A stretch of DNA of 45,557 nt from a virus. The notes under the pieces were generated by a model. It was not told the origin of the DNA. It saw only the letters and a list, made by a program, of their open reading frames with translations, and ran no database searches. Below are positions 2,072 through 41,603 of the stretch, piece after piece. Position numbers and translations under genes: made by a program. Each line of letters starts with the position of its first letter. The first letter of the stretch is position 1. Location: IMG/VR virus record IMGVR_UViG_3300009609_000013; one strand, given 5' to 3'.

Positions 2072-2812
2072 TCAAGACCTTTCTATATTAGCACTAAGCA
2101 GCTTCAGCAATTCGCGTAATTCTTCAGGCGGTGCATCAGCTTGCGCCCTTATAACTAATTGTTGTGCGATGCGTATAAATACGGTTCGTAAATTAGTGGA
2201 CCATTGTTGCTTTGTTGCATCATGCAACAAAGGGTTTGGTTTATCAGTTTTACCTCCAGACTTCACATAAGCAGTCCACTCATCACGCGTTAAATTTTGA
2301 GGAGAGGTTGGCACGAACGGAGGTTGCTTTACAGCATTAATATCCCTATGTAACGTACTACGATGTACACCAAGTAGTTTAGCGGTATCACTAACGGACT
2401 GGCCAGGTGCAGTTGGACTTTTGGCTATTTTTGGACCGTGTATTTCGACCAGTGTTTTATGCAACTGTGCACGTAAGTACGATTCCTCGTCCTTGGTCAA
2501 ATCTTTCCTGTCTAAATTCTCGTGCAATTCTATAGCTTTCAATTCGTGCTCAGTCATTAACGTGTTATAAATACGGCATGAGATTTCTGTCCACTTTAGC
2601 ACATTAAGACACGCCTGGTGTCTCCTTGCTCCTGCAACTAACGTGTATGGTGCTTCTCCATTTGGAGAGTACAACACTATAGGATGAATCAAGCCTTGCT
2701 CATTGATTGAGTTGGCAAGATCACTTATTATTCCATAGCTCTGACGCGCACGCGTATCTAAGTCGCATACAATATCACTCATTTTTACTATACGTAATAG
2801 TCCTAAGTTCAT
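2072..2812 (-). CDS. ParB N-terminal-domain (ParB/Srx-like) protein with HTH
   Basis: GLIHPIVLYSP...YTLVAGARRHQAC (ParB GxxRxxA box) followed by an HTH (SVSDTAKLLGVHRSTLHRDI). Alignable by eye over ~160 aa with the N-terminus of the 40254-41603 product. Confidence 0.8.
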   Translation of the reverse strand: MNLGLLRIVKMSDIVCDLDTRARQSYGIISDLANSINEQGLIHPIVLYSPNGEAPYTLVAGARRHQACLNVLKWTEISCRIYNTLMTEHELKAIELHENLDRKDLTKDEESYLRAQLHKTLVEIHGPKIAKSPTAPGQSVSDTAKLLGVHRSTLHRDINAVKQPPFVPTSPQNLTRDEWTAYVKSGGKTDKPNPLLHDATKQQWSTNLRTVFIRIAQQLVIRAQADAPPEELRELLKLLSANIERS

Positions 2813-2824
2813 ATTATAACTCCT

Positions 2825-3241
2825 TCATTTGCCAAGCTTTCGTTTCAGCATTTCTAGCACTCGCTCTAAATCGTCATCATCAACTGCGTCGGCAAGATCA
2901 GCTGGATTATCAAAGTGCTTAGTAATAGGATTCTTTGCACGTGTTGTGCGAGCTTTCTTGTTCTCCTTGTCTTTGTATGGAGTTTTGTATTTGCGCACTT
3001 GCCATGTAAGTGATCCTGCGCTCACGAACTTTTGGTAGGCGTGCAATATAGCTACGTCATGTTTCTCCTTTAAGTGAGGTATATGACACGCTTGACAACG
3101 CACGACACCACAACAAGTTGTCAGATTAGTGCTGTTTGAGCACTTATGTCCACCTTTGGACTCGTACTGAATGATACGCAGCTCGTTAGGTGCTAGTGCC
3201 TTAAGCATGGAAGCCAAAGCTTCTTTTTGTTCGGGCGTCAT
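2825..3241 (-). CDS. Cys-rich (zinc-finger-like) basic protein
   Basis: 138-aa ORF with GGAG upstream. Contains HKCSNSTNLTTCCGVVRCQACHIPH. Confidence 0.65.
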   Translation of the reverse strand: MTPEQKEALASMLKALAPNELRIIQYESKGGHKCSNSTNLTTCCGVVRCQACHIPHLKEKHDVAILHAYQKFVSAGSLTWQVRKYKTPYKDKENKKARTTRAKNPITKHFDNPADLADAVDDDDLERVLEMLKRKLGK

Positions 3242-3293
3242 TTAAGTTATCTCCTTTCAGTTTCACCGAACCACGGCTATAGTAAGATTAAGC

Positions 3294-3500
3294 TCATTGA
3301 ATACGCTGTCTGCGCAAGTTCTCTAATTCCTTGAGTCCTTCCGGATGATCATTTAGTGCTTGATCATGCTTAATATCTCCTTGCCTTATACTGTCAGCTA
3401 TAGAGCGAAAGGCTAATCCTGCTTCAATACCACAGAATATTATCACTGCTGTAAGAGCAAGGTAAAATATCAGCTGAAACACATCAAGCAATCGTTGCAT
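3294..3500 (-). CDS. small membrane protein (one TM helix)
   Basis: 68-aa ORF with AAGGAG upstream. Hydrophobic segment IFYLALTAVIIFCGIEAGLAF. Confidence 0.6.
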   Translation of the reverse strand: MQRLLDVFQLIFYLALTAVIIFCGIEAGLAFRSIADSIRQGDIKHDQALNDHPEGLKELENLRRQRIQ

Positions 3501-3546
3501 GTGCTGTACTCCTTAAGGTAATAATCACTACTATCGGCGCGGCCCT

Positions 3547-3921
3547 TTAGTCAATAATTAGTTCATTGATAAGCTCATCTTCACGCATTGAATCTTCGTA
3601 CTCAAAGTCAGTTGTTTCACCACAGCTACAGGTTAAGCGAATTGTGCACTTAAATCCTACGTGCGTGGCTGAGCGTACAAACTCCTCGTTGATTACGTCA
3701 GCTTCAAGTTCGTGTTCTAGTGTCTCATCATGAGTATCAGTGAAGTCTGAGACATCTAGCGTAATTTCAAAATCGTGTTCACCAAGTTCCTCACCACAGT
3801 GCTGGCACATAAGTGTAAAGGTTATAACTCCTTCTATCATTGAGACATCACTGAAGTCTACTTCAGCACTGTAAAATTCACCGTGCAAAACTAAAGTTTC
3901 TTTGCAAAAGTGACACTTCAT
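3547..3921 (-). CDS. zinc-ribbon protein (three Cys pairs), acidic
   Basis: CHFC...CQHCGEE...CSCGE. AGGAG upstream of ATG 3921. Confidence 0.65.
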   Translation of the reverse strand: MKCHFCKETLVLHGEFYSAEVDFSDVSMIEGVITFTLMCQHCGEELGEHDFEITLDVSDFTDTHDETLEHELEADVINEEFVRSATHVGFKCTIRLTCSCGETTDFEYEDSMREDELINELIID

Positions 3922-4004
3922 TACGCATTCTCCTATAGTGTAATTCCTTACTAGTTCGCGGGCAGTCCGGCGAAGCCGGTATTAAACAAACAGTACATTT
4001 TATC

Positions 4005-4151
4005 TCAATCATTAAACTCCATTAATTTTAGTTGCATAAAACAGTCAGGACAACGCTTATTGACAGAAGCGTCTGAGCAATAGCAGTCAAATAACTCATG
4101 ACAATCCGGACATTCGTGAGCATGTGGCAGAAGGATATTAACTTCTTTCAT
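4005..4151 (-). CDS. small zinc-ribbon protein (48 aa, below the ORF-track cutoff)
   Basis: Hand translation: MKEVNILLPHAHECPDCHELFDCYCSDASVNKRCPDCFMQLKLMEFND. GAAGGAG lies 8 nt upstream. The ORF exactly fills the gap after the 4154 stop. Confidence 0.55.
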   Translation of the reverse strand: MKEVNILLPHAHECPDCHELFDCYCSDASVNKRCPDCFMQLKLMEFND

Positions 4152-4153
4152 TA

Positions 4154-4420
4154 CTAAACTCCTTCAGTTTTCATAAGGTTAAGTAAGCGTTGAACAGTAG
4201 TTATTACGTCATCTTTATGGTTGTACTTTAGAACTAGCTGAAATTCTTTGAGTTTGGATACAAGCTCATCACCTATCTTAGATGAGCCGTGAACGAACCA
4301 GTAACAATAATCCTCGAACATTAAGCTGGCATCAGTAGCAGTATCAAATGGACCTTCAGTACCAGAAGCATAATTATAAAAGTACCATTTACCATTCTCT
4401 TCGTATATAAGATCAACCAT
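4154..4420 (-). CDS. hypothetical protein
   Basis: 88-aa ORF with GGAGG upstream, first gene after the promoter at 4476-4504. Confidence 0.65.
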   Translation of the reverse strand: MVDLIYEENGKWYFYNYASGTEGPFDTATDASLMFEDYCYWFVHGSSKIGDELVSKLKEFQLVLKYNHKDDVITTVQRLLNLMKTEGV

Positions 4421-4475
4421 TACTAAATTCCTCCAGTTAAAATTGTTCAGTTAACGCTGAATTTGATTATACTTA

Positions 4476-4504
4476 ATTATAGCAGAGATCAGATCAAATG
4501 TCAA
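4476..4504 (-). promoter_or_regulatory. sigma70 consensus promoter (TTGACA-N17-TGcTATAAT)
   Basis: Minus strand reads acTTGACAtttgatctgatctctgcTATAATtaag. Confidence 0.8.
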
Positions 4505-4523
4505 GTACTTAATAAAGATTAAG

Positions 4524-4757
4524 TTATTTCCATACTCTCCATAAAGTGGACATAATTAGAGTAATAATAACTCCTCCAAACACACGCACTTCAGTAAGTA
4601 CGTGATCTATCTTACGCTCCAAATTATCAAGCTTATGTTCTACGTTAGAAATGCGGTCATTGTAACTAGCTATAGATATAGAAGCTTTGCGAGCTTTCTC
4701 TTCGCTAGCACCAGCTTCAATTAAAGCATCATAAACTTCAGCGATCATTAGCTGCAT
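4524..4757 (-). CDS. coiled-coil protein with C-terminal membrane anchor (DUF1640-like)
   Basis: YDALIEAGASEEKARKAS...coiled coil...VFGGVIITLIMSTLW. AAGGAG upstream. Confidence 0.6.
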   Translation of the reverse strand: MQLMIAEVYDALIEAGASEEKARKASISIASYNDRISNVEHKLDNLERKIDHVLTEVRVFGGVIITLIMSTLWRVWK

Positions 4758-4771
4758 TTAAGTTCTCCTTT

Positions 4772-4985
4772 GGCCTAAGCAAGATTGTCTCCCTTTGGGC
4801 AATGAGAGCTTAATTGCTTTATGGGCTTACTTGTAAAGGGACGCTTCGCTTGGCTCCTACGTCGCCACCCTTGACAAGCGCCCAGTCGCAATTCAGCAAA
4901 GAATTGCCCTTCGGGAGAAAATCTTGTCCGGCCTGGAAGCACCGGTAGAACAGCGGTACCCTAAGGGCTACGCGTTGCTCCGCCT
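4772..4985 (-). repeat. structured intergenic element, copy A
   Basis: Closing helix is 4913-4934 paired with 4772-4793. The central hairpin contains a 57-nt block (4825-4881) that is the exact reverse complement of 18005-18061. Limits are approximate. Confidence 0.75.
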
Positions 4986-5296
4986 ATCTGCTTTATAACA
5001 CCCTCATTGTGAGAAGCATTTTTAGCTGTTACTTTATCATCGTAAGCCATACGTTTACGCACTATTTGTGCCTTCCACATACTAGCCTCTAACAATAGAC
5101 TCTTTGTGTGGCTTGCATCGGGAGGTATTCTATTAGGGTAGTGGTCCCTCCTGGCTCGTAAGTACGATCCTAATATACGTGCATCTTCGAGGCATTCACA
5201 CACGTATATTATGGAACTTCCTATGCAACTGGAATCTTCACTGCTCATTATTGAGCATCCACCCAGTTTGGGCATTACGTGAATATAAGCTGGCAT
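4961..5296 (-). CDS. hypothetical protein
   Basis: 111-aa ORF preceded by palindrome M2 and GGAG (aaccGGAGcaatatATG). Its last ~25 nt run into element A. No recognisable domain. Confidence 0.5.
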   Translation of the reverse strand: MPAYIHVMPKLGGCSIMSSEDSSCIGSSIIYVCECLEDARILGSYLRARRDHYPNRIPPDASHTKSLLLEASMWKAQIVRKRMAYDDKVTAKNASHNEGVIKQIGGATRSP

Positions 5297-5302
5297 ATAT
5301 TG

Positions 5303-5325
5303 CTCCGGTTATAATCTAACCATAG
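5303..5325. promoter_or_regulatory. palindromic motif copy M2 (ctccGGTTATAATCTAACCatag)
   Basis: Variant of the 12-copy palindrome, intergenic, immediately 5' of the SD of the 5296 gene. Confidence 0.7.
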
Positions 5326-5374
5326 CACATTAACTGTTGCTTATGGGCCGGTCTTAGCGTGTGCCACACGCAAA

Positions 5375-5710
5375 TTACTCTACTCTATTAATTGACTTCT
5401 CACTACTAAACTTATCTCCATAACGCTGCTGTAACTTAGCTAGATTACTCTCAGCTATATCTTCTAGCTCACATCCATAAGCTGTACATGCTTCTGCAAT
5501 ATACCATAGGATATCACCAAGCTCTTCTTGTAACTTAGCTATATTAAGTGAGTGTCCATGGTATAACCATTTCTTGATTAAATCAGCTAACTCTCCAGCC
5601 TCTCCATTCAGCCCGAGAACAGCCATCGTAATATGATTACGAAAGTTTTCCTGCGATGGCTTAATCGCACTCGTTTTGCAAGCACATTTCTGGTAGTCAT
5701 TCAAATTCAC
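5375..5710 (-). CDS. mazG: MazG-like nucleoside triphosphate pyrophosphohydrolase
   Basis: LGLNGEAGELADLIKK...EELGDILWYIAEAC...AESNLAKLQQRY is the typical MazG EExxE/D helix pair. Confidence 0.85.
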   Translation of the reverse strand: MNLNDYQKCACKTSAIKPSQENFRNHITMAVLGLNGEAGELADLIKKWLYHGHSLNIAKLQEELGDILWYIAEACTAYGCELEDIAESNLAKLQQRYGDKFSSEKSINRVE

Positions 5711-6123
5711 TTTTTGCCTCGCATATCTATTCCACTTAGACGTTTCAGCGGTTGACCACCGAATGGTTTATGCTCAATGGTGAATCCAGCTTGCTTCATT
5801 ATCTTAATTAGATCGCTGGCCCAAAAACGTGTTTGGTTGCCGAAGTCTTGCATACTAGTCATTACAAATGCTGCACCCTCAATGAGTTCTTTAGCACGCT
5901 CTGGGCCAAGCTCATCTTGCCTTGCTCGTAGACGAAAGCCTAATGGAGTATTCTTATCTTCAATGAAGGCATTCCATGTAGCTTGACCCTGATAGCCCCA
6001 AGCCCACTCGCTGCGATCTACGATATAAATGCCACCTGCTAGATCGAGGTAATCGAATAGGTACTTTGCACCTGAAAGTGCTTCACGCAGCTGTCGTGAT
6101 TCTATTTGTCTGTCGTTAAACAT
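5707..6123 (-). CDS. hypothetical protein
   Basis: 138-aa ORF with a 4-nt stop/start overlap with mazG. No motif recognised. Confidence 0.65.
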   Translation of the reverse strand: MFNDRQIESRQLREALSGAKYLFDYLDLAGGIYIVDRSEWAWGYQGQATWNAFIEDKNTPLGFRLRARQDELGPERAKELIEGAAFVMTSMQDFGNQTRFWASDLIKIMKQAGFTIEHKPFGGQPLKRLSGIDMRGKK

Positions 6124-6182
6124 TAGCTAGTCTCCTTGAGTGTGTATTCCTTGCGAGTCAAATAAATAGCCAAAGAACATGC

Positions 6183-6377
6183 TTAATCTCCAGACTCAGA
6201 TTTGCGGCGTAGGTAAGTAGTGTTTTCGTGTACTTTGTATGCCAGGTATAATGATACGAGCATCATTACGGACATTATGCACAGCATTCCAATGGCCACT
6301 TTGCCGAAGAATATATTAGTGCTTTGCATCTCTGCGAGTAGAAGTATCGTCTTTTCAAGTGTTGCGGATGAGTCCAA
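6183..6377 (-). CDS. small membrane protein (one TM helix)
   Basis: IFFGKVAIGMLCIMSVMMLVSLYLAY. TTG start; an internal ATG (MQSTN) is an alternative start. Confidence 0.5.
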   Translation of the reverse strand: MDSSATLEKTILLLAEMQSTNIFFGKVAIGMLCIMSVMMLVSLYLAYKVHENTTYLRRKSESGD

Positions 6378-6510
6378 AGTGCAATTCCTTTAGGTAATGG
6401 CGTGTAACTTTCCGTGTGACACACGGCCCGCGCTAGTAATTTATTGTTTACTTATGGGCCGGTCGGTTGCCCCCAACCGAACTTACATTTAATTTAGTTG
6501 TCCTTATCAG

Positions 6511-6723
6511 TTATTGAAGTGTTAGCTTAGTCTCCTCTAAGTTGTGTATCTTATAGTATAAGAACGCCCTCTTTAGCCACGCAATTAAAGCAGGCATTTT
6601 TTGTTGCTTGAATTTACGCAGTAATGGTGCAGTGTTCATTATTACTCCTCTACAATCAACTTGTACAAGACAAGCAAAGTTTTCAGTAACTATTTGGTAG
6701 TCAATTGGTAATTGCGTGTTCAT
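6511..6723 (-). CDS. hypothetical protein
   Basis: Start moved to ATG 6723 (MNTQLPIDYQ), which has AAAGGAGT directly upstream. The longer 6783 start would translate palindrome M3 (WLNFNQ). Confidence 0.55.
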   Translation of the reverse strand: MNTQLPIDYQIVTENFACLVQVDCRGVIMNTAPLLRKFKQQKMPALIAWLKRAFLYYKIHNLEETKLTLQ

Positions 6724-6727
6724 ACTC

Positions 6728-6750
6728 CTTTGGTTAAAGTTTAACCATAG
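6728..6750. promoter_or_regulatory. palindromic motif copy M3 (ctttGGTTAAAGTTTAACCatag)
   Basis: Same 15-bp core as M1 and M12. Intergenic. Confidence 0.8.
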
Positions 6751-6839
6751 GATTTGGTCTAAGTAGAGATTTGCCGTAGCCACGCAGGCAGCTTATGGAA
6801 CCGAGCTGGTTGTGTGGTAGGAATTTTCCCTGCTTTTGT

Positions 6840-6985
6840 GCCGGCCAAGTTTTTCTCCGAAGGAGGTAATCCCAAAGGATTTCGGAGAGAGGGTTCTGTC
6901 AAGGGTGCCTCCAGCGCTAGCGCCTTGACAGGTCCCTCTTGTAGAAATACCCTCACTTACCTCCAGAGGAGAATAACTTGCTGGC
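6840..6985 (+). repeat. structured intergenic element, copy B (antisense to flanking genes)
   Basis: 5' arm gccggccaagtttttctcc pairs with 3' arm ggagaataacttgctggc. Hairpin 6896-6931 is ctgtcaagggtgc...gcgccttgacag. Orientation is set by the asymmetric arm sequences. Confidence 0.7.
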
Positions 6986-6992
6986 ATTTAAA

Positions 6993-7190
6993 TCAACGTG
7001 CTTTATTTTGTTCAAGGAATGCTCTAACATTTGCATCCTTTATTATACTAGCTATTGTTTGCTCGACTTCAATTTGTTCTGCTAATTGCATCTCATGCAT
7101 TTCCTCCAGTGTTAGTGCTTGCTTAGGCTTGCTTTTTATAAGTGTTAGATTACGCTCTCCTTGTTCAGCTTTAAGTGCACGACTGCACAT
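6993..7190 (-). CDS. hypothetical protein
   Basis: 65-aa ORF, co-directional, with AAAGGA upstream. Confidence 0.55.
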   Translation of the reverse strand: MCSRALKAEQGERNLTLIKSKPKQALTLEEMHEMQLAEQIEVEQTIASIIKDANVRAFLEQNKAR

Positions 7191-7234
7191 TTAGGTAGTC
7201 CTTTTCACTTAGATTTGCTGTTTAGTATTGAGCG

Positions 7235-7495
7235 TTACAAATCTATGCTGCGAAGATTTCTTAGTTCTTCACTTAATTTTCTGTCGTCACGATGAATAGC
7301 GCTTGTTGCACTATTTAGTAATGCGTTTTGTTTTAGGTAGTGCACATATACGTGATGAATCTCTTCTAAAAATTCATCTAGAGGAATTGCAGATTCCTTT
7401 TTGAGTATATCTGCTAGAGATCGTAAGTCTCGTGCTAGCCTTGTGCGTACTAATGCACGTAAATCTAATAGGCGTTCGTCACCGCTGCGTTCCAC
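7235..7495 (-). CDS. hypothetical protein
   Basis: 86-aa ORF, GTG start with AGGAGG 8 nt upstream. N-terminus is paralogous to the 7497-7628 product. Confidence 0.65.
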   Translation of the reverse strand: MERSGDERLLDLRALVRTRLARDLRSLADILKKESAIPLDEFLEEIHHVYVHYLKQNALLNSATSAIHRDDRKLSEELRNLRSIDL

Positions 7496-7496
7496 G

Positions 7497-7628: not shown

Positions 7629-7659
7629 AGCTTATTACCTCCTGAGTAGTATTTTGTAA

Positions 7660-8375: not shown

Positions 8376-8401
8376 AGGATTCTCCTCATTAAAGTTACGC
8401 A

Positions 8402-8799: not shown

Positions 8800-8828
8800 T
8801 TGACATTTCAGCAAAACTGTGATATAAT
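8800..8828 (+). promoter_or_regulatory. rightward early sigma70 consensus promoter (TTGACA-N17-TGaTATAAT)
   Basis: ccTTGACAtttcagcaaaactgtgaTATAATtac. Overlapping palindromes gcatcaaagatgc (8767-8779) and atgctataagcat (8776-8788) lie just upstream. Confidence 0.85.
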
Positions 8829-8891: not shown

Positions 8892-9251
8892 ATGCTATTA
8901 CGTAATATATTTACTAAATATTTTCCCCTCGCCCCGCGCGTAAGTAATATTCACAAGTATACATACTTAAACTGTAATGCATCTAAGTGTTATTACTGTT
9001 CGTCTAAGTCTACAGGTATGGATCACGTACTGCCAATTTCGCTTGCAAATCTACTGCCAGACTTTAAGTTTCCAGCTGAATTGCTTCAACTCGTGCCGTG
9101 TTGTACTAGGTGTAATTCAATTGCTGGCAATAGATTCTTTACTACGCTCGCTGCAAAGCACAAGTTTATTAATAACCGTATCTATGAACTGAAGGTACGT
9201 GCTCATTACGCTGAGGTAATTGATAGGCTGGATAAATTGCTGTCTAGGTAA
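8892..9251 (+). CDS. small HNH-like (CxxC...DH...CxxCN) protein, paralogue 1
   Basis: KCYYCSSKSTGMDHVLP...LVPCCTRCNSIAGN. First gene after the 8800 promoter. Confidence 0.7.
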   Translation: MLLRNIFTKYFPLAPRVSNIHKYTYLNCNASKCYYCSSKSTGMDHVLPISLANLLPDFKFPAELLQLVPCCTRCNSIAGNRFFTTLAAKHKFINNRIYELKVRAHYAEVIDRLDKLLSR

Positions 9252-9542: not shown

Positions 9543-9634
9543 GTACAAATATACTCGGGCGCGCTGTAAGTAATGCGCTTAACCTTTTTCAGCCGGCTTA
9601 ATCAGCGGTAACTGTCTAAGTACGTTAGCATATG

Positions 9635-9657
9635 CTGCGGTTAAAATTCAACCAAAG
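9635..9657. promoter_or_regulatory. palindromic motif copy M4 (ctgcGGTTAAAATTCAACCaaag)
   Basis: Variant copy between the convergent genes 9267-9542 and 9718-9984. Confidence 0.65.
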
Positions 9658-9674
9658 CAAAATTTTAGACGCAG

Positions 9675-11469: not shown

Positions 11470-11498
11470 TTGACATTTGCCCTCAAAACTGATATAAT
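11470..11498 (+). promoter_or_regulatory. sigma70 consensus promoter (TTGACA-N17-TGaTATAAT) heading the plus-strand arm
   Basis: gcTTGACAtttgccctcaaaactgaTATAATttg. Closely resembles the 8800 promoter (shared TTGACATTT and AAAACTG). Confidence 0.85.
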
Positions 11499-12109: not shown

Positions 12110-12649
12110 ATGGATGACTCAACAGACAACAAGCACTCAGGTGATTCTCACCTGGAAAACTTAACTGATAACAAATACTTGTATGACAAACGTTTTGTTG
12201 AGAAGCGCAATTACGAAGTTAAGGCACTCTGGGAGAATCACCACAGCATGTTACGTATGCTAGCACTAGGCCATTCCAATGCTGACATTGCAGAAGCTCA
12301 TGGTGTTACTCCGCAAACAGTCTCTAACTTACGCAACTCTCCCGTTGCTAAAACGAAACTGCTTTCATTGCGCCAGACTCTTGATAGCGAAGCGATTGAT
12401 ATTGGTGCTCGCATTAACGAGTTTGCACCACTGGCACTCAAGCTACTTGAAGATGTCATTAGCGGTGAAGTTGAGGCGCCTATTGCTATTCGTGCTAAGT
12501 ATGCAAGTGTTCACTTAGGTCGCGCTGGCTTTGGCGAGGTCAAAAAAATCGCCTCAGTTAACACTCACTTGACACGCGATGATATTGAAGCAATAAAACT
12601 ACGTGCACTAGCTTCTGCAAGTGAAGCAGGTTTGATAGTAGAAGACTAA
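12110..12649 (+). CDS. HTH-domain protein, candidate small terminase subunit
   Basis: LuxR/sigma-region-4-like HTH (LALGHSNADIAEAHGVTPQTVSNL). Its position two genes upstream of terL, separated only by the homing-endonuclease gene, suggests TerS. A regulatory role cannot be excluded. Confidence 0.5.
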   Translation: MDDSTDNKHSGDSHLENLTDNKYLYDKRFVEKRNYEVKALWENHHSMLRMLALGHSNADIAEAHGVTPQTVSNLRNSPVAKTKLLSLRQTLDSEAIDIGARINEFAPLALKLLEDVISGEVEAPIAIRAKYASVHLGRAGFGEVKKIASVNTHLTRDDIEAIKLRALASASEAGLIVED

Positions 12650-12689: not shown

Positions 12690-13372
12690 GTGGACCCAGA
12701 AGTAGTTAAAGAGCTAGAGCCGTTAAGCTGTTTTTTGGTGCGTGGTTAGGTGACGGTTACTTAGCTTATTCTCCACGCAATCCAAAACGTCTTGAGGTTG
12801 GATTAGGATGCCAAGATGAAGAAATAGTTGCTTACGCATATTCGACAGTAAAAAACTATTTTTCTGATTTGTGTTTTCCTTACATGCGACAGGATGCTTC
12901 AGGTAACTCCAAACGACCAGTGCATAGAATTGCTTGGCTTGATGCTGATTTTTTTGAACTTATGTATTATGCAACTAACGACAAAGGTAAGCTGCCTGAC
13001 TATATATGGGAAGCTTCTTACGAAGCACGACTAGAGATGTTAGCGGGTTTAATGGATACTGATGGATCAGTTATACTAATTAAGAATTTTGTCAACCCTA
13101 CATACATGCTGTCTTATGGAGGAGTTAAACCATTCGTGCAATACGTGCCTGCATTATTTGACCGTTGTAATATACGTGTTGGTAAAGTATCTACCGACAG
13201 AGGTAGGAAGGCGCATTACCAACCGTATACGCGATTCTCTCCTTCTATTGGGAGTGCAGTTAAGCGTGGATTCTACTTTAGATGTTCTCGTAAGATGGAA
13301 AGAATTCGTGAGTACGTTCGATTACATACGGATTTAAAAGTATATAATCCCCCTAATATTGGATTAGCTTAA
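12690..13372 (+). CDS. free-standing double-motif LAGLIDADG homing endonuclease, reading frame broken at a T6 run
   Basis: GTG 12690 with AGGAGG 10 nt upstream opens frame 3, which stops at 12747. Frame 2 is open from 12710 and encodes FFGAWLGDGYL (motif 1) ... LEMLAGLMDTDGSV (motif 2). The frames join by a -1 shift on T TTT TTG (12731-12737). The uninterrupted ORF is 12869-13372. Confidence 0.7.
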
Positions 13373-17794: not shown

Positions 17795-17844
17795 TGCGGC
17801 ACGGCGTGCCTCAAACCTCCCGCGCGTAAGTAACACATAATTCA

Positions 17845-17867
17845 CTTTGGTTGAATTTTAACCAAAG
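17845..17867. promoter_or_regulatory. palindromic motif copy M5 (ctttGGTTGAATTTTAACCaaag)
   Basis: Intergenic, 90 nt 5' of element C. Confidence 0.75.
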
Positions 17868-17953
17868 CAATGGAGTTGTACTATGATCCCAAAACGCTAC
17901 GCCGCGCAGAATAGCGCGCCACTGATCCTGTTCCAGTACACACTCTTACTCCC

Positions 17954-20470: not shown

Positions 20471-20473
20471 CTG

Positions 20474-20496
20474 CTTTGGTTAAACTTTAACCGGAG
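20474..20496. promoter_or_regulatory. palindromic motif copy M6 (ctttGGTTAAACTTTAACCggag)
   Basis: Intergenic, 20 nt 5' of ATG 20513. Confidence 0.8.
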
Positions 20497-20512
20497 CAAT
20501 TGGAGTTACGTT

Positions 20513-22210: not shown

Positions 22211-22214
22211 TTCG

Positions 22215-22237
22215 CTGCGGTTAGAATTTAACCGAAG
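22215..22237. promoter_or_regulatory. palindromic motif copy M7 (ctgcGGTTAGAATTTAACCgaag)
   Basis: Intergenic, 16 nt 5' of GTG 22250. Confidence 0.75.
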
Positions 22238-22249
22238 GAATTTTCTTGT

Positions 22250-27402: not shown

Positions 27403-27405
27403 TTA

Positions 27406-27428
27406 CTTTGGTTAAATTCTAACCGCAG
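27406..27428. promoter_or_regulatory. palindromic motif copy M8 (ctttGGTTAAATTCTAACCgcag)
   Basis: Intergenic, 20 nt 5' of ATG 27445. Confidence 0.8.
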
Positions 27429-27444
27429 CATTGGAGATTAAGCA

Positions 27445-29096: not shown

Positions 29097-29112
29097 TTGC
29101 TCACAAGAATTA

Positions 29113-29135
29113 GTGTGGTTACATTTTAACCAAAG
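29113..29135. promoter_or_regulatory. palindromic motif copy M9 (gtgtGGTTACATTTTAACCaaag)
   Basis: Intergenic, 65 nt 5' of element D. Confidence 0.7.
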
Positions 29136-29196
29136 CAACAATGTAAAACTGTGGTGCCGAGCAACGCGAGGTCAGTGATTCCCTGTACTTCAGCGC

Positions 29197-34529: not shown

Positions 34530-34530
34530 T

Positions 34531-35094
34531 TTGCTTTGGATAGATTTTAACCACAGCAATATAATTCACTTGTTTGTCATTCTCTTTTTACTTAGTTCTT
34601 GCTCGCACCAAAAAGATAAGTTTACTCTAATTGAGGGTGAAATTATACTAACAATTCCTTACTCTACGGCATCAGTGTCTACAAGTGGAAATATAAAAGC
34701 TGGCACAATTACTCCAGAAGAGTTTCAGAAGCAATATGGTACTTTAATTGCCACGACTCCCGAAGCAGGGACGCTGTTCACACTATATTTTATTACTGGT
34801 ACTACAACGCTTACACCAGAGAGCTTACATGAGATACCTTTAATAAAAGCTGAAATTGAACGACGTAAATTTGTTGAGATTGAGATAACCGGACATGCAG
34901 ACCAGACTGGCGATTATGCTAATAATGATCAGCTTTCATTATCTCGTGCTGAACTGGCACGAAGTACTATTGAGAATGATGGAATATACGTAGATTTTGT
35001 ACGTGTTATAGGACGCGGCTCACGTGCACCGCTTATTGATTCTCCAGGAAAAGATGAGCCTAAAAACAGACGCGTTGAAATTCTAGTACGTTAG
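34531..35094 (+). CDS. OmpA/Pal-like peptidoglycan-binding lipoprotein
   Basis: Lipobox LFLLSSC followed by an OmpA_C pattern: EIEITGHADQTGDYANNDQLSLSRAELARSTI...GRGSRAPL...NRRVEILV. The start is uncertain (TTG 34531, GTG 34507 or TTG 34570). The listed ATG 34426 overlaps the upstream gene by 104 nt. Confidence 0.75.
   Translation: MLWIDFNHSNIIHLFVILFLLSSCSHQKDKFTLIEGEIILTIPYSTASVSTSGNIKAGTITPEEFQKQYGTLIATTPEAGTLFTLYFITGTTTLTPESLHEIPLIKAEIERRKFVEIEITGHADQTGDYANNDQLSLSRAELARSTIENDGIYVDFVRVIGRGSRAPLIDSPGKDEPKNRRVEILVR
34534..34556. promoter_or_regulatory. palindromic motif copy M10 (ctttGGATAGATTTTAACCacag)
   Basis: Degenerate left half. Lies between the 1717-aa gene and the lipoprotein signal peptide. 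Confidence 0.65.
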
Positions 35095-35112
35095 AGTTCC
35101 GCAACTCGTAAC

Positions 35113-36315
35113 TTAGTTTACTTCTGCTTCTTGTCCGCCTTGTTGTTTCTTACTAAAATCCGGATTAACATGCACCTTTTTTGTTATAGGTGCATACACC
35201 AGAACTCCCATAAGCTCTAATGTCTCTACCATTTTCATCAAGTGAAATTGTGTAGTGTCATGTGAGAACCTATTCATCAAGTATCGCAAAGTTACTTCTT
35301 TGTGCTTTAATATTTCCTCCATTACTGCAGGTAATATCTCTGCGTAATCACTTCTACCTACTCCACTTAGCGCACGCATCATAGGAATTTCTGCTTCATC
35401 TAACACTTCTACTGCACGAACAAAGTCCTCAGCTCGAAGCTTCATTTCATCAGATCTAGATGCACTCATTATCATACTCAATTTAGTTGCCGTACTTGCC
35501 TTCCTGCTGTAATACGCTGCAAATCTCGCGTCTTGTATTACTTGAGTATCTTGTGACTGACTCACGTACCATTCTGTACGTACTTCTATGTACTCATTAG
35601 TAGCCCTAAATGGCCCTGCAAGTAACGAAATCTCCTCTAAATCAGCTATTAGTTTCTGCTTAATCTCTTGATTCTCAATTGGAATCGGAACAGTTTTACC
35701 TCGCTTTTCAGCATATATAAACAGCACACGACTAGCAAATCCGCCACCTATAGCTTCAGCTGGTAATGCTGCTTGAATCTGTTCCGGTGTAGTTGCAGCT
35801 AGCATATTAAGCCATGCACCTGTTACTTCAAAACTACCGCCTCCTTTGGTCCTATACGACCAGTTATCTGCACAGTCATAAAGATCAGTTAAATCTGCCA
35901 GGAATTGACTATTCTTATAGCCAATGAAGACTGTTAATTCCTTACTAAACACCGTTAAGCTACAGTGGTTCATGAACTTACCGGCATCAAACTGCGTTGT
36001 TGTAGCACACAAACTCAGCTCTTTAATAAAGTACTCTGGTGTGAGCCTATCTGCAGACAGTTTCAAATTAAGCGGTCTTAATATGCTATAACCTGAAGCC
36101 ATTGCTGTACCTTTACGTGGTTCTCCTGGTGGTCCAGTAAGCACAATGTATAAGTTAGGATACCACGTTTGCGATCCCCAGTGCAAATAACACTTACGTT
36201 GTAATGCTGCTGCAATTATGCTTATGCCTACCCACTTACGATAAAGCTCGCATGGTTCAGTCTCTTCTGTAAATAGCATATACGCATCTAGGAAATCTCC
36301 TAATTGTCTGCTCAT
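35113..36315 (-). CDS. replication-associated protein (DUF3987-like, degenerate P-loop)
   Basis: 400 aa, with LYIVLTGPPGEPRKGTAMASG. It is adjacent to the polymerase. The assignment is tentative. Confidence 0.5.
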   Translation of the reverse strand: MSRQLGDFLDAYMLFTEETEPCELYRKWVGISIIAAALQRKCYLHWGSQTWYPNLYIVLTGPPGEPRKGTAMASGYSILRPLNLKLSADRLTPEYFIKELSLCATTTQFDAGKFMNHCSLTVFSKELTVFIGYKNSQFLADLTDLYDCADNWSYRTKGGGSFEVTGAWLNMLAATTPEQIQAALPAEAIGGGFASRVLFIYAEKRGKTVPIPIENQEIKQKLIADLEEISLLAGPFRATNEYIEVRTEWYVSQSQDTQVIQDARFAAYYSRKASTATKLSMIMSASRSDEMKLRAEDFVRAVEVLDEAEIPMMRALSGVGRSDYAEILPAVMEEILKHKEVTLRYLMNRFSHDTTQFHLMKMVETLELMGVLVYAPITKKVHVNPDFSKKQQGGQEAEVN

Positions 36316-36581
36316 CGACGTCCTCTTTTCAATGAAGCTATGTGATTAGCCATCTCCTTAATCAGCTCACCTAATGCTTCTTTCTCAAACTTATTCAATA
36401 ATCGCATACTTAAATCCTTATTAAAAAGCAGTGGTGTACGGCACTTAACGCACATAGTTATGTCATCTTCTTGTGGCATTGCTGGTGCAACTGTTCCTGC
36501 TTCAACTACTGCATTGAGTATATGACCGCAGGTTGGACACTTCTGTTCTGGTACGCGTTTGAGCCAGTTCGGATTTTCCAT
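36312..36581 (-). CDS. zinc-ribbon protein
   Basis: CPTCGH...CVKC. 89 aa, with an ATGA overlap with the downstream gene. Confidence 0.6.
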   Translation of the reverse strand: MENPNWLKRVPEQKCPTCGHILNAVVEAGTVAPAMPQEDDITMCVKCRTPLLFNKDLSMRLLNKFEKEALGELIKEMANHIASLKRGRR

Positions 36582-36583
36582 AG

Positions 36584-39500
36584 TTATATTCCTAAAGTTA
36601 AAATTGCATCTTGTAGATATGCTTCCAATACATACGGATCATTACTAAATTTGTCTCCTTTCAATTCAATACCTAAATGCTTGTTTAGGCATAAGTTAAC
36701 TACTAAATCAACTGGCACCACAAATTCCACGTTACGATACCGTAACGGAGCTTCCAGAGAAGCTTTAATACTTAATAGAATTCGTGCGTGATCTGCAAGT
36801 GGTAAGCTCAACGGTATTTGAATACTAACCGAATCGTGTACTTGAGTAAGTAACTCAACGTGCTTGAATAGTGGATCTGAATTATAGTAGATGAAATTTA
36901 GTCCCTGTTCATTTACTAAATCTCCGCACGTACCTTGAGGGATACAACTATAAGCCTCATTGAGCAGCTTGTCATCATACTTTCCTAAAAACGTAATTTT
37001 CCTGCCATACAAGTTAGTGAGTGTGCGTGTAGACTTGATTGTATCTTCTACATATTTCCAGTATCCACCTTTAAGTCCTGGATAAGCTGCGTGATATCTA
37101 TCGTAAATAAATTTAGCTTGTCGTTCAGGTATTTCATACTTGAGGCTAAATGACTTGTATCCAAAACCGTAATTAAAACCGTGATTTGCTCTCTTCGACC
37201 AATCCCTCTGTGAATGAGTGCCATTACCCAAGCTAGATGATCCATGCTCATTACTAACTTCGTCATATGGCACTCCAAATATAAGTGCCCCAGTCATACG
37301 ATGTATATCTAAGTTGTTTTCGTACACTTCTTTCATTTGCGTGATATTACCAACGTACGCAACAATACGTGCTTCAATCTGCGACATATCAAGTGAATAA
37401 ATAACGTATCCTGCATCTGCTACGTAGTAGCTAAGCACATCATGAGGTATATTCTGCAAGTTAGTGTTTCCTGTGACGCATATTCTATCCTCGTATCGAG
37501 TAAGAAAAAATGAAGTCTCAGTTTCTATACAGTAAACAGGTCCATCGTAATTGATCAAACTAAAATAATCCTCCTGTTGTTTTGCTAATACTCTAGGCTT
37601 TATATTAACAGTGTATAATCCTTTAGCTGAGAATTCTCCGTACGATTCCAGAGCTCTATTTTCACCCCAATTTATTGTTGCTGATTTGCCGCACAAGTGC
37701 GCAAGTGTAGCTACCCATTCGGCATTCTGTTTTACTGCAGTAAAATACCAAAAGCTCGTTCCTCTTCTATGTGCATCCCAGTGTGAAATTTCGTCCAATA
37801 AAGAACTTAGACTTTGCTGGTCAAATCTAAGCAACCACGAATCAAAGAGTTTGCTTCTGCCACTCCTATTAAGTAATTCTATGAACTCCTTACACTCACT
37901 TACAGGCAAGTAAAATCTTCTGTACCCATTATATGCAGTACGATGTTCGTTGTATTGAATCCCGAATATTTCCATAAGTACTAAGAAACGTGCTATCTTT
38001 TCCTTTTTCTTAAATTGAAAGGTTATAGAATTTCCTTCTATACTGCCGTCAGCTTGTATTACTGCCAATAGACGTATTGCAGGCCAGCTTATTTTTCCAC
38101 TTTTATACTCCCCTCCTATAGGCAGCATCCACTCACCAGTAAATACGGCTTCGTATGCAGGCTTAACTATAAATTTATTACGGTGTGAGACTGTAGGTAT
38201 TCTATGATCTAGCGTATAACAGTTTCTGTGTAACGTTGAGTTAGCACGTATCATCTTACCGCTATTTTTTGTTACGTGTATTTTTGGTACACACCATGAT
38301 AGCGACCAATCAGTATCCCATTGAAGTACTTCTGTATCTTCTTTTAATTCATCTAGTCTAATCCATCCACTTTTTGTGAATACCTCAGCTCTAGGAAGTA
38401 AACAACCAGTTCCGAATATATTTGCACTGCTTGATATTCTACTAAATCGTGTACCTACTGGATTATATGAGCATCTCATACGACCGTCATCATCTACGTT
38501 CTCGACGTTGAGAAATGTTGATGCCTTCTTTTGCAGCCGGCGAACCTCAAGTATTAAACTTGCTTCTTTAAATCCCTTGTTAGCTATACGTGTTAATGCT
38601 TCCTCATCTACAGTAGGCTTGCCAATCTTACTCAAGTATGGAGCTAACCCACGATTCGTATAAAAATACTCGCATACTTGCTGCGGTGAAGCCAAGTTAA
38701 ACGCATTAGTGTTCATTATACTATATGCCTGTTGCGTTAATTCATCAGCTTCCAATCGAGCATTTCTTGCAGCCCTATCCATACCCTCACGATCTATTCT
38801 GATTCCACGCTCCATCATATAGCTTAATGGTCCAACTAATTTTATTTGACGCTCGTATGCATCGTAATTACCACGCTCTTCCAATTCAGCTAGCTGCTTA
38901 GGAAATGCATCCGCACATGCGATACTATCAAGACAGTTGTAGGCCCAGCCCTTGCTATATTCACCTACACCAGTTAGCCACAACTTGCCGTCACGTTTAT
39001 AGTAAGGAATGTCCGTCCACATTGCAGTGATAAATTCCAGTGTTTTGCCTCGGTACGTTTTGCCACCAAAATCTGGATAGAGAATATGCTGAGCTATCAT
39101 CGTATCAGCTTTGATATTACGCGTACGAATTCCATACTTGCGTAGCAGAAAGTGTGAATCGAATACTATATTCTGCCCGCCTTTTATATAACTATCATTG
39201 CCAAGAAGATTTTCGATGCTTAACATCAGCTCATATTCTTGTTCAGCGCTAAAATAATCACCATTTGCATCCACGAATGGAATGCACAGCACATCAATTT
39301 CGTTAGTTGCAAAGCTAATACAGCTTAGCTCTTGTGTCTTAGGTGTTAATTCAATGTCGTAATATATTATACCTCCATTCTCAGCTACTTGTTTGCACTC
39401 TTCTAACCAGCTTATACATTCGTAGTAGCTAGGTTGAGTACGCAATTTGCGATCAGTTAATCTAATATCAGGAAATTCAGATTCTGTACGAATCTTCTTA

Positions 39501-40018
39501 AAGTCTAGTGTAATGAGATACTTCGCAAGATACGCTGCTGGATTCGCGAGCACTTTTTCATCAGTGTATATAGCAGGATGTAGCGTAGGGATGACTTTCC
39601 TTCCCGGCAGGAGAGTTGATTCAAGTATACTACCACGCCATGCAGTAATTCCAACTCGACCCGTAAGAGCAAATAATGAAGTGTTTCCCATAGCAACAAT
39701 AACATTAGCTTTAGTTTTGTTGAGTTCGTCGCGCAGCACCTCTAAATACCGCTGACCAAGTACGCTTATATTCGCACGTCCATTCACACCGGACTTAATA
39801 TCTAAGTAATGTTTGAGTTCGAATTCAACGTCCTTAATTACATTAGTTAGATAACAGCTGCCTCGTGAAATCCTAGCATTCATGAGACACTCATTGAGGT
39901 TTCTACCAGCTGGTCCCATGAAGGGTTTACCATAGCGTACTTCATACTTTGCCGGCTGCTCGCCAACAAGTGCTATTTTGCTACTCAACAGTCCGTCTGG
40001 TCCGACTAGCTGCGGCAT
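36584..40018 (-). CDS. polA: family-A DNA polymerase with N-terminal UDG-superfamily domain, interrupted by an intein
   Basis: UDG-like motifs: LVGEQPAKYE, GKPFMGPAG, TLHPAIY. Exonuclease motif: IYYDIELT. Polymerase motifs: SLDMSQIEARI, TNLQNIP, LTQVHDSV. 1144 aa, of which 313 aa are intein. Confidence 0.9.
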   Translation of the reverse strand: MPQLVGPDGLLSSKIALVGEQPAKYEVRYGKPFMGPAGRNLNECLMNARISRGSCYLTNVIKDVEFELKHYLDIKSGVNGRANISVLGQRYLEVLRDELNKTKANVIVAMGNTSLFALTGRVGITAWRGSILESTLLPGRKVIPTLHPAIYTDEKVLANPAAYLAKYLITLDFKKIRTESEFPDIRLTDRKLRTQPSYYECISWLEECKQVAENGGIIYYDIELTPKTQELSCISFATNEIDVLCIPFVDANGDYFSAEQEYELMLSIENLLGNDSYIKGGQNIVFDSHFLLRKYGIRTRNIKADTMIAQHILYPDFGGKTYRGKTLEFITAMWTDIPYYKRDGKLWLTGVGEYSKGWAYNCLDSIACADAFPKQLAELEERGNYDAYERQIKLVGPLSYMMERGIRIDREGMDRAARNARLEADELTQQAYSIMNTNAFNLASPQQVCEYFYTNRGLAPYLSKIGKPTVDEEALTRIANKGFKEASLILEVRRLQKKASTFLNVENVDDDGRMRCSYNPVGTRFSRISSSANIFGTGCLLPRAEVFTKSGWIRLDELKEDTEVLQWDTDWSLSWCVPKIHVTKNSGKMIRANSTLHRNCYTLDHRIPTVSHRNKFIVKPAYEAVFTGEWMLPIGGEYKSGKISWPAIRLLAVIQADGSIEGNSITFQFKKKEKIARFLVLMEIFGIQYNEHRTAYNGYRRFYLPVSECKEFIELLNRSGRSKLFDSWLLRFDQQSLSSLLDEISHWDAHRRGTSFWYFTAVKQNAEWVATLAHLCGKSATINWGENRALESYGEFSAKGLYTVNIKPRVLAKQQEDYFSLINYDGPVYCIETETSFFLTRYEDRICVTGNTNLQNIPHDVLSYYVADAGYVIYSLDMSQIEARIVAYVGNITQMKEVYENNLDIHRMTGALIFGVPYDEVSNEHGSSSLGNGTHSQRDWSKRANHGFNYGFGYKSFSLKYEIPERQAKFIYDRYHAAYPGLKGGYWKYVEDTIKSTRTLTNLYGRKITFLGKYDDKLLNEAYSCIPQGTCGDLVNEQGLNFIYYNSDPLFKHVELLTQVHDSVSIQIPLSLPLADHARILLSIKASLEAPLRYRNVEFVVPVDLVVNLCLNKHLGIELKGDKFSNDPYVLEAYLQDAILTLGI
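37466..38404 (-). mobile_element. intein (313 aa) with LAGLIDADG homing-endonuclease domain in the polymerase gene
   Basis: Starts at Cys in FGTG/CLLPRAEV. Block B is TLDH. The endonuclease motifs are LLAVIQADGSI and LLDEISHWDAH. It ends ...VYCIETETSFFL...ICVTGN/TNLQNIP, which places it immediately N-terminal of the conserved (P)NLQNIP motif. The penultimate residue is Gly rather than the usual His. Confidence 0.8.
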
Positions 40019-40020
40019 AA

Positions 40021-40257
40021 TTACCTCTTTCTATTCGCACGATAATCAGTTATTTTAGACTGCGATCCAATAAATTCCTGCAATTCAAGTGCTAATTTCT
40101 CCTCAGTTTCTCCGTAGCAAATAACTATACTTATATTTGGGCCCGTTAATCCAAACTCGTTCAGTTTCACAGCTATAGGTTCACCAGATTTTAAACGCCT
40201 TACATTTTCTTCAGTTATTCCAAAGATAAAATGATTGCCTGCTTGTGCTCGTATCAT
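40021..40257 (-). CDS. hypothetical protein
   Basis: 78-aa ORF overlapping the methyltransferase stop by 4 nt. Confidence 0.6.
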   Translation of the reverse strand: MIRAQAGNHFIFGITEENVRRLKSGEPIAVKLNEFGLTGPNISIVICYGETEEKLALELQEFIGSQSKITDYRANRKR

Positions 40258-41603
40258 TTTGCTCTTACCTCATGAATAAGCCTATTAATGTACGCATTAT
40301 GGAAGTTTGGACTCAAGTCAAAGCCAACACTTTTGTGACCAAGCTCAAATGCAGTTCGTATTGTTACTCCACTTCCTGCGAATGGTACAAGTATATTCGA
40401 TCCGGGCCAAACAAAAGTGTCGAGTATTTCTTTCATCAAAGCCGATGGCCTCTCAGTTGGATGTATACGCTGCGAAGGTGGTACTCCCGCAAAGTCGAAC
40501 ACATTACTCCTACCTTGTTTACGTATTTGTGCACCTCCTTTTCTGCCGTACACGAACATTTCGTAGGAGTTACCTAAGTTAGTTGACATTCCCTGCGCTT
40601 GCCCTTGTGAATTACCCTTCTTCCATATAGCTGGAATTTTGCACGTCTCAAACTTCGCACGTTGCATAGTACTTATAACACGTGCAATATGTTCTGGCCC
40701 ACACCAGATGATGATATAGCTGTTGTCAGCAGCAAGTCGATAACACTCATCAGTTAGGCGGTTTAGGAATGCTAGATAATCTACGTTACTAATCTCCTTA
40801 TAATCGTGCTGCAAACTTGGATTAGTATCACCATCAGCACGTTGCTCTTGCAAGTCAATTCCATACGGTGGATCACACTCTATAAATCCAAACTGTGCAG
40901 GCTCAAGTGAATTATCGAAGAAGTCACCTACTATGTATGCACTAAGCGGATCATCAGGACTTGTCATACGACCAGATAGCACGGCGTCTCTGCGAGCTTC
41001 AGCAACAGCAACTTTATTCGTTATCACACTCGCTGCACGCGCAAGCTTCTTTAGTGCCGCTGACTTATTCTTCTCTTTATCAAGTTCAAGTTCAGGCAAG
41101 ACACGCATGGCATCAGCGAGTTTCATATCTTGCAGAATAGTAGCATGGCTTACTCCTAATGTACGAGCAGTATCTCTAACTGAATGCCCAGGAGCATCTG
41201 CACTACGTGCTACTTTCTCACCGTGAATTTGAACAAGTGTTAAATGTAGACGCTCTTTCATTTTCACTTCTTCGCTGTAGTTTAAACTGAGTCGGTCTAG
41301 ATTCTCGAATAGTTCTACAGCTGCAAGTTCTAGATCAGTCATAGGCTTGTCATAAATACGGCAACTAATTTCGTCCATTTTTAGTGCTGTGCAAGCCATG
41401 AAACGTCTACCACCGGCCACAAGTTTATATGGCTGCTCACCAGTCGGAGAGTACACAGCAATCGGATGTATTAATCCGTACTTTTCAATTGAGGTCATTA
41501 AGTCCTGTATAATGCCATAGTCTTGACGACCGCGGTGATCTGAGTCTAGATCAATTTGCTCCATTGGAATAACGCGCAGAATGCCGAGATTAATTGTAGG
41601 CAT
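40254..41603 (-). CDS. ParB-like N-terminal domain fused to an N6/N4 DNA methyltransferase
   Basis: N-terminus: GLIHPIAVYSP...YKLVAGGRRFMAC plus an HTH. C-terminus: FIECDPPYG (motif IV) then NILVPFAGSGVT (motif I), which is the beta-class motif order. Confidence 0.85.
   Translation of the reverse strand: MPTINLGILRVIPMEQIDLDSDHRGRQDYGIIQDLMTSIEKYGLIHPIAVYSPTGEQPYKLVAGGRRFMACTALKMDEISCRIYDKPMTDLELAAVELFENLDRLSLNYSEEVKMKERLHLTLVQIHGEKVARSADAPGHSVRDTARTLGVSHATILQDMKLADAMRVLPELELDKEKNKSAALKKLARAASVITNKVAVAEARRDAVLSGRMTSPDDPLSAYIVGDFFDNSLEPAQFGFIECDPPYGIDLQEQRADGDTNPSLQHDYKEISNVDYLAFLNRLTDECYRLAADNSYIIIWCGPEHIARVISTMQRAKFETCKIPAIWKKGNSQGQAQGMSTNLGNSYEMFVYGRKGGAQIRKQGRSNVFDFAGVPPSQRIHPTERPSALMKEILDTFVWPGSNILVPFAGSGVTIRTAFELGHKSVGFDLSPNFHNAYINRLIHEVRAK

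Follow-up and report, generated by a model that had tools for sequence, protein, structure and literature searches.

Which protein reads the 12 dispersed palindromes of a phage that carries two ParB-like proteins and no partition ATPase, and what would such reading serve? The question is raised by IMG/VR record IMGVR_UViG_3300009609_000013, a viral sequence of 45,557 nucleotides (hereafter “the window”, by which we mean this whole stretch of DNA), in which one of the two ParB-like proteins is fused to a DNA methyltransferase. An initial annotation had proposed that the smaller protein acts on the palindromes as a global regulator, with KorB of plasmid RK2 as precedent, and that the fusion directs methylation to the same sites. 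We favor a different assignment, to which we give a probability of roughly 0.65: the 12 palindromes would be parS-like docking sites for the fusion, with the smaller protein being an accessory that probably recognizes a different core. The two genes are as follows (aa, amino acids; HTH, helix-turn-helix):

40254..41603, minus strand: P0002, 449 aa, a ParB-HTH-methyltransferase fusion with ParB N-domain boxes I-III, the HTH, a linker of ~60 aa and a beta-class N6_N4 methyltransferase
2072..2812, minus strand: P0001, 246 aa, with a ParB N-domain, an HTH, a disordered linker and a C-terminal helical hairpin (residues 206-245), and no methyltransferase

The proposed paralogy of these two minus-strand products is borne out by 56% identity across residues 1-158 (BLASTP, E = 9e-58), and the motifs quoted as shared are present in both, which have GLIHPI, LVAG(A/G)RR, EISCRIY, ENLDR and an HTH at residues ~140-162 in common. 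Both exceed the cut-off of the Pfam family ParB_N (PF02195; 32.1 bits for P0001 and 37.2 bits for P0002, cut-off 26.3), while N6_N4_Mtase (PF01555) matches P0002 alone (residues 240-437, 78.8 bits), so that the methyltransferase is indeed confined to the second protein. Its DPPY motif (residues 244-247) stands ahead of PFAGSG (near 407-412), which is the beta-class motif order, and its C-terminal motifs match those of M.RsrI and CcrM. In both proteins, GxRR (box II) and ENLxR (box III) line up with their counterparts in Noc, Spo0J and ParB, and KorB is matched as well by sequence and fold; the Glu of the Noc/Spo0J GERR motif is Ala in P0001 and Gly in P0002. In an AlphaFold2 model of P0001 (mean predicted local distance difference test score, pLDDT, of 86.5, and >90 over residues 1-165), the HTH helices span residues 140-147 and 151-162, and Foldseek matched this model to Noc (7nfu, E = 9e-10), to the ParB-parS complex (6t1f, root-mean-square deviation of 4.7 over 182 columns) and to KorB (8qa8). 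Across 32 family members, R21, R23, G61, R63, R64, E95, E98, N99 and R102, which make up ParB boxes I-III, are invariant. The recognition helices are another matter: VSHATILQDMK in P0002 (residues 151-161) and VHRSTLHRDIN in P0001 differ at 8 of 11 positions, including residue 153, which is His in P0002 and Arg in P0001.

The absence of a partition ATPase was also upheld, with no occurrence of the ParA-type Walker A motif KGGxGK[ST] in six frames and no ParA family match among the open reading frames (ORFs) scanned, the sole true P-loop in the genome being that of a Sak4-like recombinase. Given this lack of ParA, and a phage that looks lytic, a role in partition is unlikely.

The palindromes themselves are far more numerous than chance would provide: allowing up to 2 mismatches, GGTTAAANTTTAACC occurs in 12 copies against 0.15 expected, and 0 of 100 shuffles reached 12. 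The initial annotation was therefore correct as to their number and reality and fell short as to their length, since the conserved unit is not 15 but 25 base pairs (bp), nCT-nT-GGTTAAA-N-TTTAACC-nn-AGC. The copies are:

1323..1347: palindrome copy 1, core 1328-1342, exact
5302..5326: palindrome copy 2, core 5307-5321, 2 mismatches
6727..6751: palindrome copy 3, core 6732-6746, exact
9634..9658: palindrome copy 4, core 9639-9653
17844..17868: palindrome copy 5, core 17849-17863
20473..20497: palindrome copy 6, core 20478-20492, after the major capsid gene's stop codon and ahead of the next ribosome-binding site
22214..22238: palindrome copy 7, core 22219-22233
27405..27429: palindrome copy 8, core 27410-27424
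29112..29136: palindrome copy 9, core 29117-29131
34533..34557: palindrome copy 10, core 34538-34552, 2 mismatches
42082..42106: palindrome copy 11, core 42087-42101
42353..42377: palindrome copy 12, core 42358-42372, exact

All 12 lie in short intergenic gaps, on both genome arms, either directly 5' of a ribosome-binding site or 3' of a stop codon. Two simple interpretations were rejected. The palindromes do not serve as sigma-70 promoters, as none of the six perfect consensus promoters of the genome overlaps any of them, nor do they look like RNA hairpins or terminators, for which a U-tract is missing, the stems are weak and AT-rich, and the halves vary independently. This last point was established on 234 sites from 32 lineages, in which the two half-sites varied independently at every variable position from 1 to 10 (at position 9, for example, 99 complementary pairs vs. 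101.9 expected under independence). Such independence is what one would expect if a dimeric protein read the two half-sites.

The palindromes are not peculiar to the window. IMG/VR scans anchored on the fusion and on Sak4 returned >100 relatives, in which the order of the replication module (exonuclease, Sak4, SSB-like, ParB-methyltransferase, PolA, primase) is kept and the fusion is located, in nearly all, between the Sak4/SSB-like genes and PolA; P0002 is a core gene of this module. About 45 relatives each possess their own dispersed, odd-centered 25-bp palindrome, with the same outer architecture and a different core, and all relatives with a palindrome family encode the fusion. The Desulfofustis phage LS06-2018-MD01, for instance, harbors 9 copies of tGCT-at-GTCCCAANTTGGGAC-at-AGCa, whose outer arms are as in the window but whose core is different, and its single ParB-like gene is the fusion. 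Relative L058 has CCTWTGGTGATTTAATCACCAWAGG (8 copies in 17 kilobases (kb), 6 of the 8 sites being non-complementary at the linker), relative L078 has nCTGTATGCAT-N3-ATGCATACAGn, and many lineages have AGnTnGTTTAA..TTAAACnAnCT. No such palindromes were found in two relatives without the fusion, L090 (from the Sak4-anchored scan) and the more distant Caulobacter phage Kuura. In a variation on this theme, a local cluster of tandem ATGTT(A/T)AACAT palindromes with an origin- or centromere-like look replaces the dispersed sites in relative L057 (positions 3089-3460).

The diversity of cores allowed us to ask which part of the fusion changes with them. We used a sliding-window partial Mantel analysis on 32 fusions sharing <90% mutual identity, in which protein distance in 15-residue windows was compared to core distance while controlling for the rest of the protein. 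A single peak emerged (r = 0.40-0.46, family-wise permutation p-value 0.003-0.004) at residues 146-165, i.e., the recognition helix, with the remaining windows averaging -0.01 (standard deviation 0.09, maximum 0.16-0.18); the variable linker between HTH and methyltransferase of these 32 fusions gave no signal. Down to single residues, the outer positions of a mutual-information scan were dominated by clade-defining columns, and the pair taken further was residue 153 with base 6. Here 31 of 31 lineages follow one rule, in which a His or Arg at residue 153 goes with a G at half-site position 6 and no other residue does. When the helix columns were left out of the tree, these two traits showed 7 changes each, and all 7 of 7 independent pairs were concordant, as were 4 of 4 where branch support was good. 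A hold-out set was assembled from metagenome contigs by a scan with an 8-sequence alignment, its lineages being at most 72% identical to any training sequence, and the rule was obeyed in all 9 lineages with a readable position 6 (2 with Arg and G, 7 with other residues and no G). As for the outer arms, their distances correlated with windows in the N-domain and first helix and not with the methyltransferase domain, a contrast that comes down to one deep clade split. Because the core and the fusion's recognition helix covary, the fusion is the likely reader of the palindromes, and we consider it quite probable that its HTH reads the palindrome core. Thus, the idea that a ParB-family protein reads these dispersed sites stands, but for the fusion rather than for the protein to which global regulation had been attributed.

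Several observations weigh against this assignment. Control proteins from the same loci reached a maximum r of 0.28-0.38, so that the recognition helix, although the top of ~380 windows, leads by a modest margin. The residue-153 rule emerged post hoc from a large number of residue-base pairs, one hold-out lineage (L174) is related to a training lineage (L061), and the His-bearing L075 and L145 show mixed G/T at position 6. No obvious palindrome family was detected in the fusion-bearing L007, L016, L087, L095, L039 and L041, nor in Microcystis phage Mel-JY34 and Vibrio phage ABTNL-3. Finally, another HTH protein, the TerS-like product of 12110-12649 (with a sub-threshold GerE match), lies outside the loci covered by the covariation test.

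It is from these points that a reader other than a ParB protein draws its credit, be it a host factor or this TerS-like product, whose conservation extends to the Desulfofustis phage. The palindromes could otherwise function as hairpins in RNA or DNA (terminators, processing sites or cruciforms). The moderate excess of the ParB covariation over the control maxima and the ParB-methyltransferase relatives without obvious palindromes would both fit such explanations. However, the missing compensatory covariation between halves and the weak stems in this phage argue against hairpins, and the single covariation peak falls exactly at the recognition helix, a region expected beforehand, with the residue-base rule extending to the hold-out set. 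A host factor, moreover, offers no explanation for outer arms that are conserved across phages of 34%-56% G+C. Altogether, we judge a non-ParB reader or a hairpin function to be improbable.

If the fusion does bind the palindromes, its action there could be local. It could be an operator or roadblock regulator of the neighboring genes, in the manner of HTH-bearing regulatory methyltransferases or mycobacteriophage stoperators, or it could leave an epigenetic mark by methylating nothing beyond the sites and their immediate surroundings. The position of the palindromes is suggestive in this respect: they are found a few bases 5' of ribosome-binding sites within long operons, and in relatives their outer arms are often part of the Shine-Dalgarno sequence. 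Methyltransferases that regulate transcription through an N-terminal HTH are known, and the ~60-aa linker of the fusion would allow the catalytic domain to reach flanking DNA. On the other hand, the ParB nucleotide-binding residues, all invariant in the family, point to a switch or clamp cycle and not to a simple repressor, and intergenic placement in a compact genome may reflect only where a 25-bp palindrome is tolerated. The symmetry of the palindromes is also at odds with stoperators, whose sites have an orientation and no symmetry (PMC4351075). Local action of the fusion, as an operator-binding protein or a roadblock, is the main alternative to our interpretation, if an unlikely one.

Under the docking-site interpretation that we prefer, a dimer of P0002 would apply one recognition helix to each half-site, His153 contacting the G at position 6 from the center; written as 25-mers, the sites in the model's predicted pairing are GGTTAAAGTTTAACC for P0002 and TGTTGCATCATGCAACA for P0001. 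Since the N-domain of P0002 keeps all the nucleotide-binding residues of the ParB/Noc/KorB clamps, we infer that loading at, and spreading from, these sites would depend on a nucleotide. The fusion would then load at the palindromes and spread by a nucleotide-driven cycle as ParB, Noc and KorB do, and this spreading would enrich the methyltransferase on the DNA of the phage over that of its host, the most plausible purpose being protection against restriction. Physical binding, nucleotide dependence, sliding, methylation target and biological purpose are all predictions of this model, whereas the observations comprise the homology and domain composition of the two proteins, the existence of the sites and their spread across the family, and the helix-core covariation.

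What, then, does P0001 do? At its syntenic spot (between the homologs of 2825-3241 and 1358-1915), a paralog is present only in the window and in contig L014/L050 (P0003), and is absent from L002, L004, L005 and L009-L012, all of which keep GGTTA-N5-TAACC sites. As close relatives retain the palindromes in its absence, P0001 is not needed for the palindrome system. In a tree of the N-terminal halves, P0001 groups with P0003 (support 99/98) on a longer branch, nested inside the window's own lineage of fusions (98/93), which indicates that P0001 is a partial duplication. Its C-terminal 97 residues matched only two protein clusters among 5.8 billion in a word-based search, within the limits of such a search. 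P0001 is thus an accessory, lineage-restricted duplicate of the N-terminal half of the fusion that lost the methyltransferase and gained a small helical C-terminus.

This history bears directly on the proposal that P0001 is a KorB-like global transcriptional regulator of the 12 palindromes, with its fusion paralog targeted to the same sites. Several features do recommend it: the layout of P0001 is canonical for ParB and KorB (N-domain, HTH, linker, C-terminal helical domain), its Arg153 is compatible under the residue-153 rule with the G at position 6 of the GGTTAAA half-site, all palindromes lie just 5' of genes, and KorB of RK2, a cytidine triphosphate (CTP) clamp, binds 12 operators (PMC11790492). 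However, P0001 is missing from the close relatives with the same palindromes as well as from the Desulfofustis phage with its 9 palindromes, and its recognition helix, so different from that of P0002, resembles the helix of a phage with another core (see below). Furthermore, no palindrome overlaps a consensus promoter, and no KorA or IncC partner was found in the genome. The KorB precedent hence carries over in architecture and in dispersed palindromes, but not in its operators at promoters nor in its KorA partner; we regard the regulatory role for P0001 as very doubtful, although KorB-like action at a distance from promoters is possible.

An alternative site for P0001 comes from within its own gene:

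2209..2233, no strand assigned: variant 25-bp palindrome GCTTTGTTGCATCATGCAACAAAGG, single copy, with the family outer arms and a different core; candidate P0001 site

It falls in a 15-aa insert of the P0001 ORF that has no counterpart in P0003 and is modeled as a disordered loop, which suggests that palindromes of this type can be gained via insertion into tolerant spots. Its core, TGTTGCAT-N-ATGCAACA, is an exact 17-mer at window positions 2213-2229 and was absent from the 206 loci covered before L230. The latter (IMGVR_UViG_3300008517_000030), a distant member of the family, carries this core in at least 8 dispersed copies (allowing 1 mismatch), and the recognition helix of its fusion, GEHKSTLSRDLQL, is the best match to that of P0001 among 57 helices (7 of 13 positions, vs. 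4 of 13 for P0002). Overall identity to P0001 runs in the opposite order, at 38% for the L230 fusion and 56% for P0002. Because the P0001 helix best matches that of L230, whose core occurs inside P0001's own gene, P0001 would have a different address: TGTTGCAT-N-ATGCAACA is a likelier target for it than the 12 GGTTAAA sites. With helices differing at most positions and that of P0001 nearest to a phage with another core, the earlier view that both paralogs share the 12 sites finds no support.

Some caution is called for here too, as the runner-up helix matches at 6 of 13 positions, close to the 7 of L230, and the case for the paralog comes from a single lineage. P0001 carries Arg153, yet its proposed site has T at position 6, and the palindrome at 2209-2233 is scored, on the plus strand, as a terminator-like hairpin too and may be simply that. 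A weak candidate for a site of P0003 is an imperfect 25-bp palindrome, CAGGATTTAACGTACTTGAATCCTG, located ~150 bp downstream of the P0003 gene (L014, positions 3929-3953); it lacks the family outer arms and might be P0003's own site.

It is tempting to go further and to picture P0001 as a methyltransferase-free ParB clamp retuned to the docking palindrome of another lineage, making up either a self-contained ParB-plus-site cassette or a weapon against a co-infecting rival, although we think this rather unlikely. As a weapon, P0001 would occupy the docking sites of the rival and leave its DNA unmethylated. More generally, an evolvable recognition code (residue 153 with base 6, and others) would provide each phage with a private address for its own DNA-modifying enzyme, and a retuned, methyltransferase-free paralog hints that such addresses are contested or exchanged between related phages.

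Compared to ParB-parS, Noc-NBS and KorB-OB, the system proposed here shares the N-domain boxes I-III followed by an HTH, in sequence and fold, and the palindromic nature of the sites. By analogy, KorB is the closest functional counterpart, with many dispersed palindromic sites per replicon, here 12 and assigned to P0002 rather than P0001. It differs from all three in the lack of a ParA, IncC or KorA partner, in its lytic phage replicon, and in its sites, which are 25 bp long, odd-centered and away from promoters; P0002 also has a DNA methyltransferase in place of the C-terminal dimerization domain, and its nucleotide binding and sliding are predicted by analogy.

The fusion architecture is already known. 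Proteins that join the ParB-CTPase fold and an N6_N4 methyltransferase (PF02195 + PF01555) are enriched in phages and found in phages and prophages (PMC12704722), and the same study (PNAS 2025) gave no DNA target or function for them beyond “perhaps anti-defense”, and reported that the ParB-CTPase fold binds CTP, adenosine triphosphate or guanosine triphosphate according to its fusion partner. P0002 has this same domain architecture; what appears new here, from comparative sequence analysis, is the putative set of cognate genomic sites and a residue-base rule for their recognition. A phage ParB-fold protein is also known to work with an enzyme of post-replicative DNA modification: the 5mYOX-associated ParB-like activator of phage DNA-modifying enzymes is a separate protein with no obvious DNA-binding domain, whose nucleotide-pocket mutants are functional (PMC13229309), whereas P0002 is fused to its enzyme and has an HTH.

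A possible parallel is found in an unrelated group, the Cluster O mycobacteriophages (such as Corndog), which possess >30 dispersed 17-bp dyad repeats, TGTTCGG-NNN-CCGAACA, not tied to promoters (PMC4351075). These phages are not obviously temperate and encode a protein with a ParB-like domain without ParA; a dimeric DNA-binding protein was predicted for the repeats, and no link was made to the ParB-like protein (PMC4351075). Their repeats differ from the sites described here in length (17 bp), in their 3-bp center and in that one third lie in coding regions. Mycobacteriophage stoperators are asymmetric, oriented with transcription and bound by a lysogeny repressor, unlike the symmetric sites of this genome, in which neither an integrase nor a repressor was found.

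If the docking-site interpretation is right, a parS-like code would direct a DNA-modifying enzyme to the genome of its own phage, and this use of the ParB clamp, outside partition and KorB/Noc-type regulation, would be new. This would matter for one of the commonest phage ParB-fold architectures, the ParB-methyltransferase fusions, which stand without assigned target or function (PMC12704722), and would offer a candidate explanation for dyad repeats in other lytic phages, e.g., the Cluster O mycobacteriophages. With lineage-specific cores and a residue-to-base rule at hand, helix swaps offer a direct way to test the idea.

The genome in which this system resides is that of a complete phage of ~45.4 kb (42% G+C). 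Bases 1-123 are an exact direct repeat of 45435-45557, and this 123-bp terminal repeat is either a true terminal redundancy or an overlap from circular assembly. Known phages yielded no near-identical DNA match; among named phages, Desulfofustis phage LS06-2018-MD01 comes closest, with 50% identity for the capsid protein and 37% for the ParB-methyltransferase. The structural operon, which encodes a 1717-aa internal protein besides the terminase, portal and major capsid proteins, runs rightward; the replication module, with exonuclease, Sak4-like recombinase, SSB-like, ParB-methyltransferase, PolA (with an insert) and primase genes, runs leftward. No RNA polymerase was found in the genome, any more than an integrase or repressor, and the phage looks lytic in lifestyle. 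Transcription evidently relies on the host RNA polymerase, as can be deduced from six perfect TTGACA-17-TATAAT sigma-70 promoters (12/12 consensus, with an extended -10 (TG)), all within the early region at 2-11.5 kb and including a divergent pair around 8.7-8.8 kb (the order of coordinates gives the direction):

2035-2007: perfect sigma-70 promoter
4504-4476: perfect sigma-70 promoter
8705-8677: perfect sigma-70 promoter
8800-8828: perfect sigma-70 promoter
11333-11305: perfect sigma-70 promoter
11470-11498: perfect sigma-70 promoter

The PolA gene (36584-40018, minus strand) encodes 1144 aa, vs. 826 aa in the Desulfofustis phage. Its residues ~541-850 are without counterpart in the latter and weakly match an intein-containing ribonucleotide reductase family (phrog_12229), so that this extra segment is probably an intein or a homing-endonuclease insert; relatives L023 and L024 have a PolA insert at a different position. 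Free-standing homing-endonuclease-like ORFs were also identified at 89-649 (minus strand), 8892-9251 (plus strand) and 12869-13372 (plus strand), the types among them being HNH, a weak HNH_5 match and a LAGLIDADG-like ORF, the last between the terS-like and terL genes. Finally, a MazG-like pyrophosphatase gene and a nucleoside 2-deoxyribosyltransferase-like gene (5375-5710 and 921-1274, both on the minus strand) are found in the early region, and could take part in nucleotide-pool manipulation or in base modification alongside the methyltransferase.

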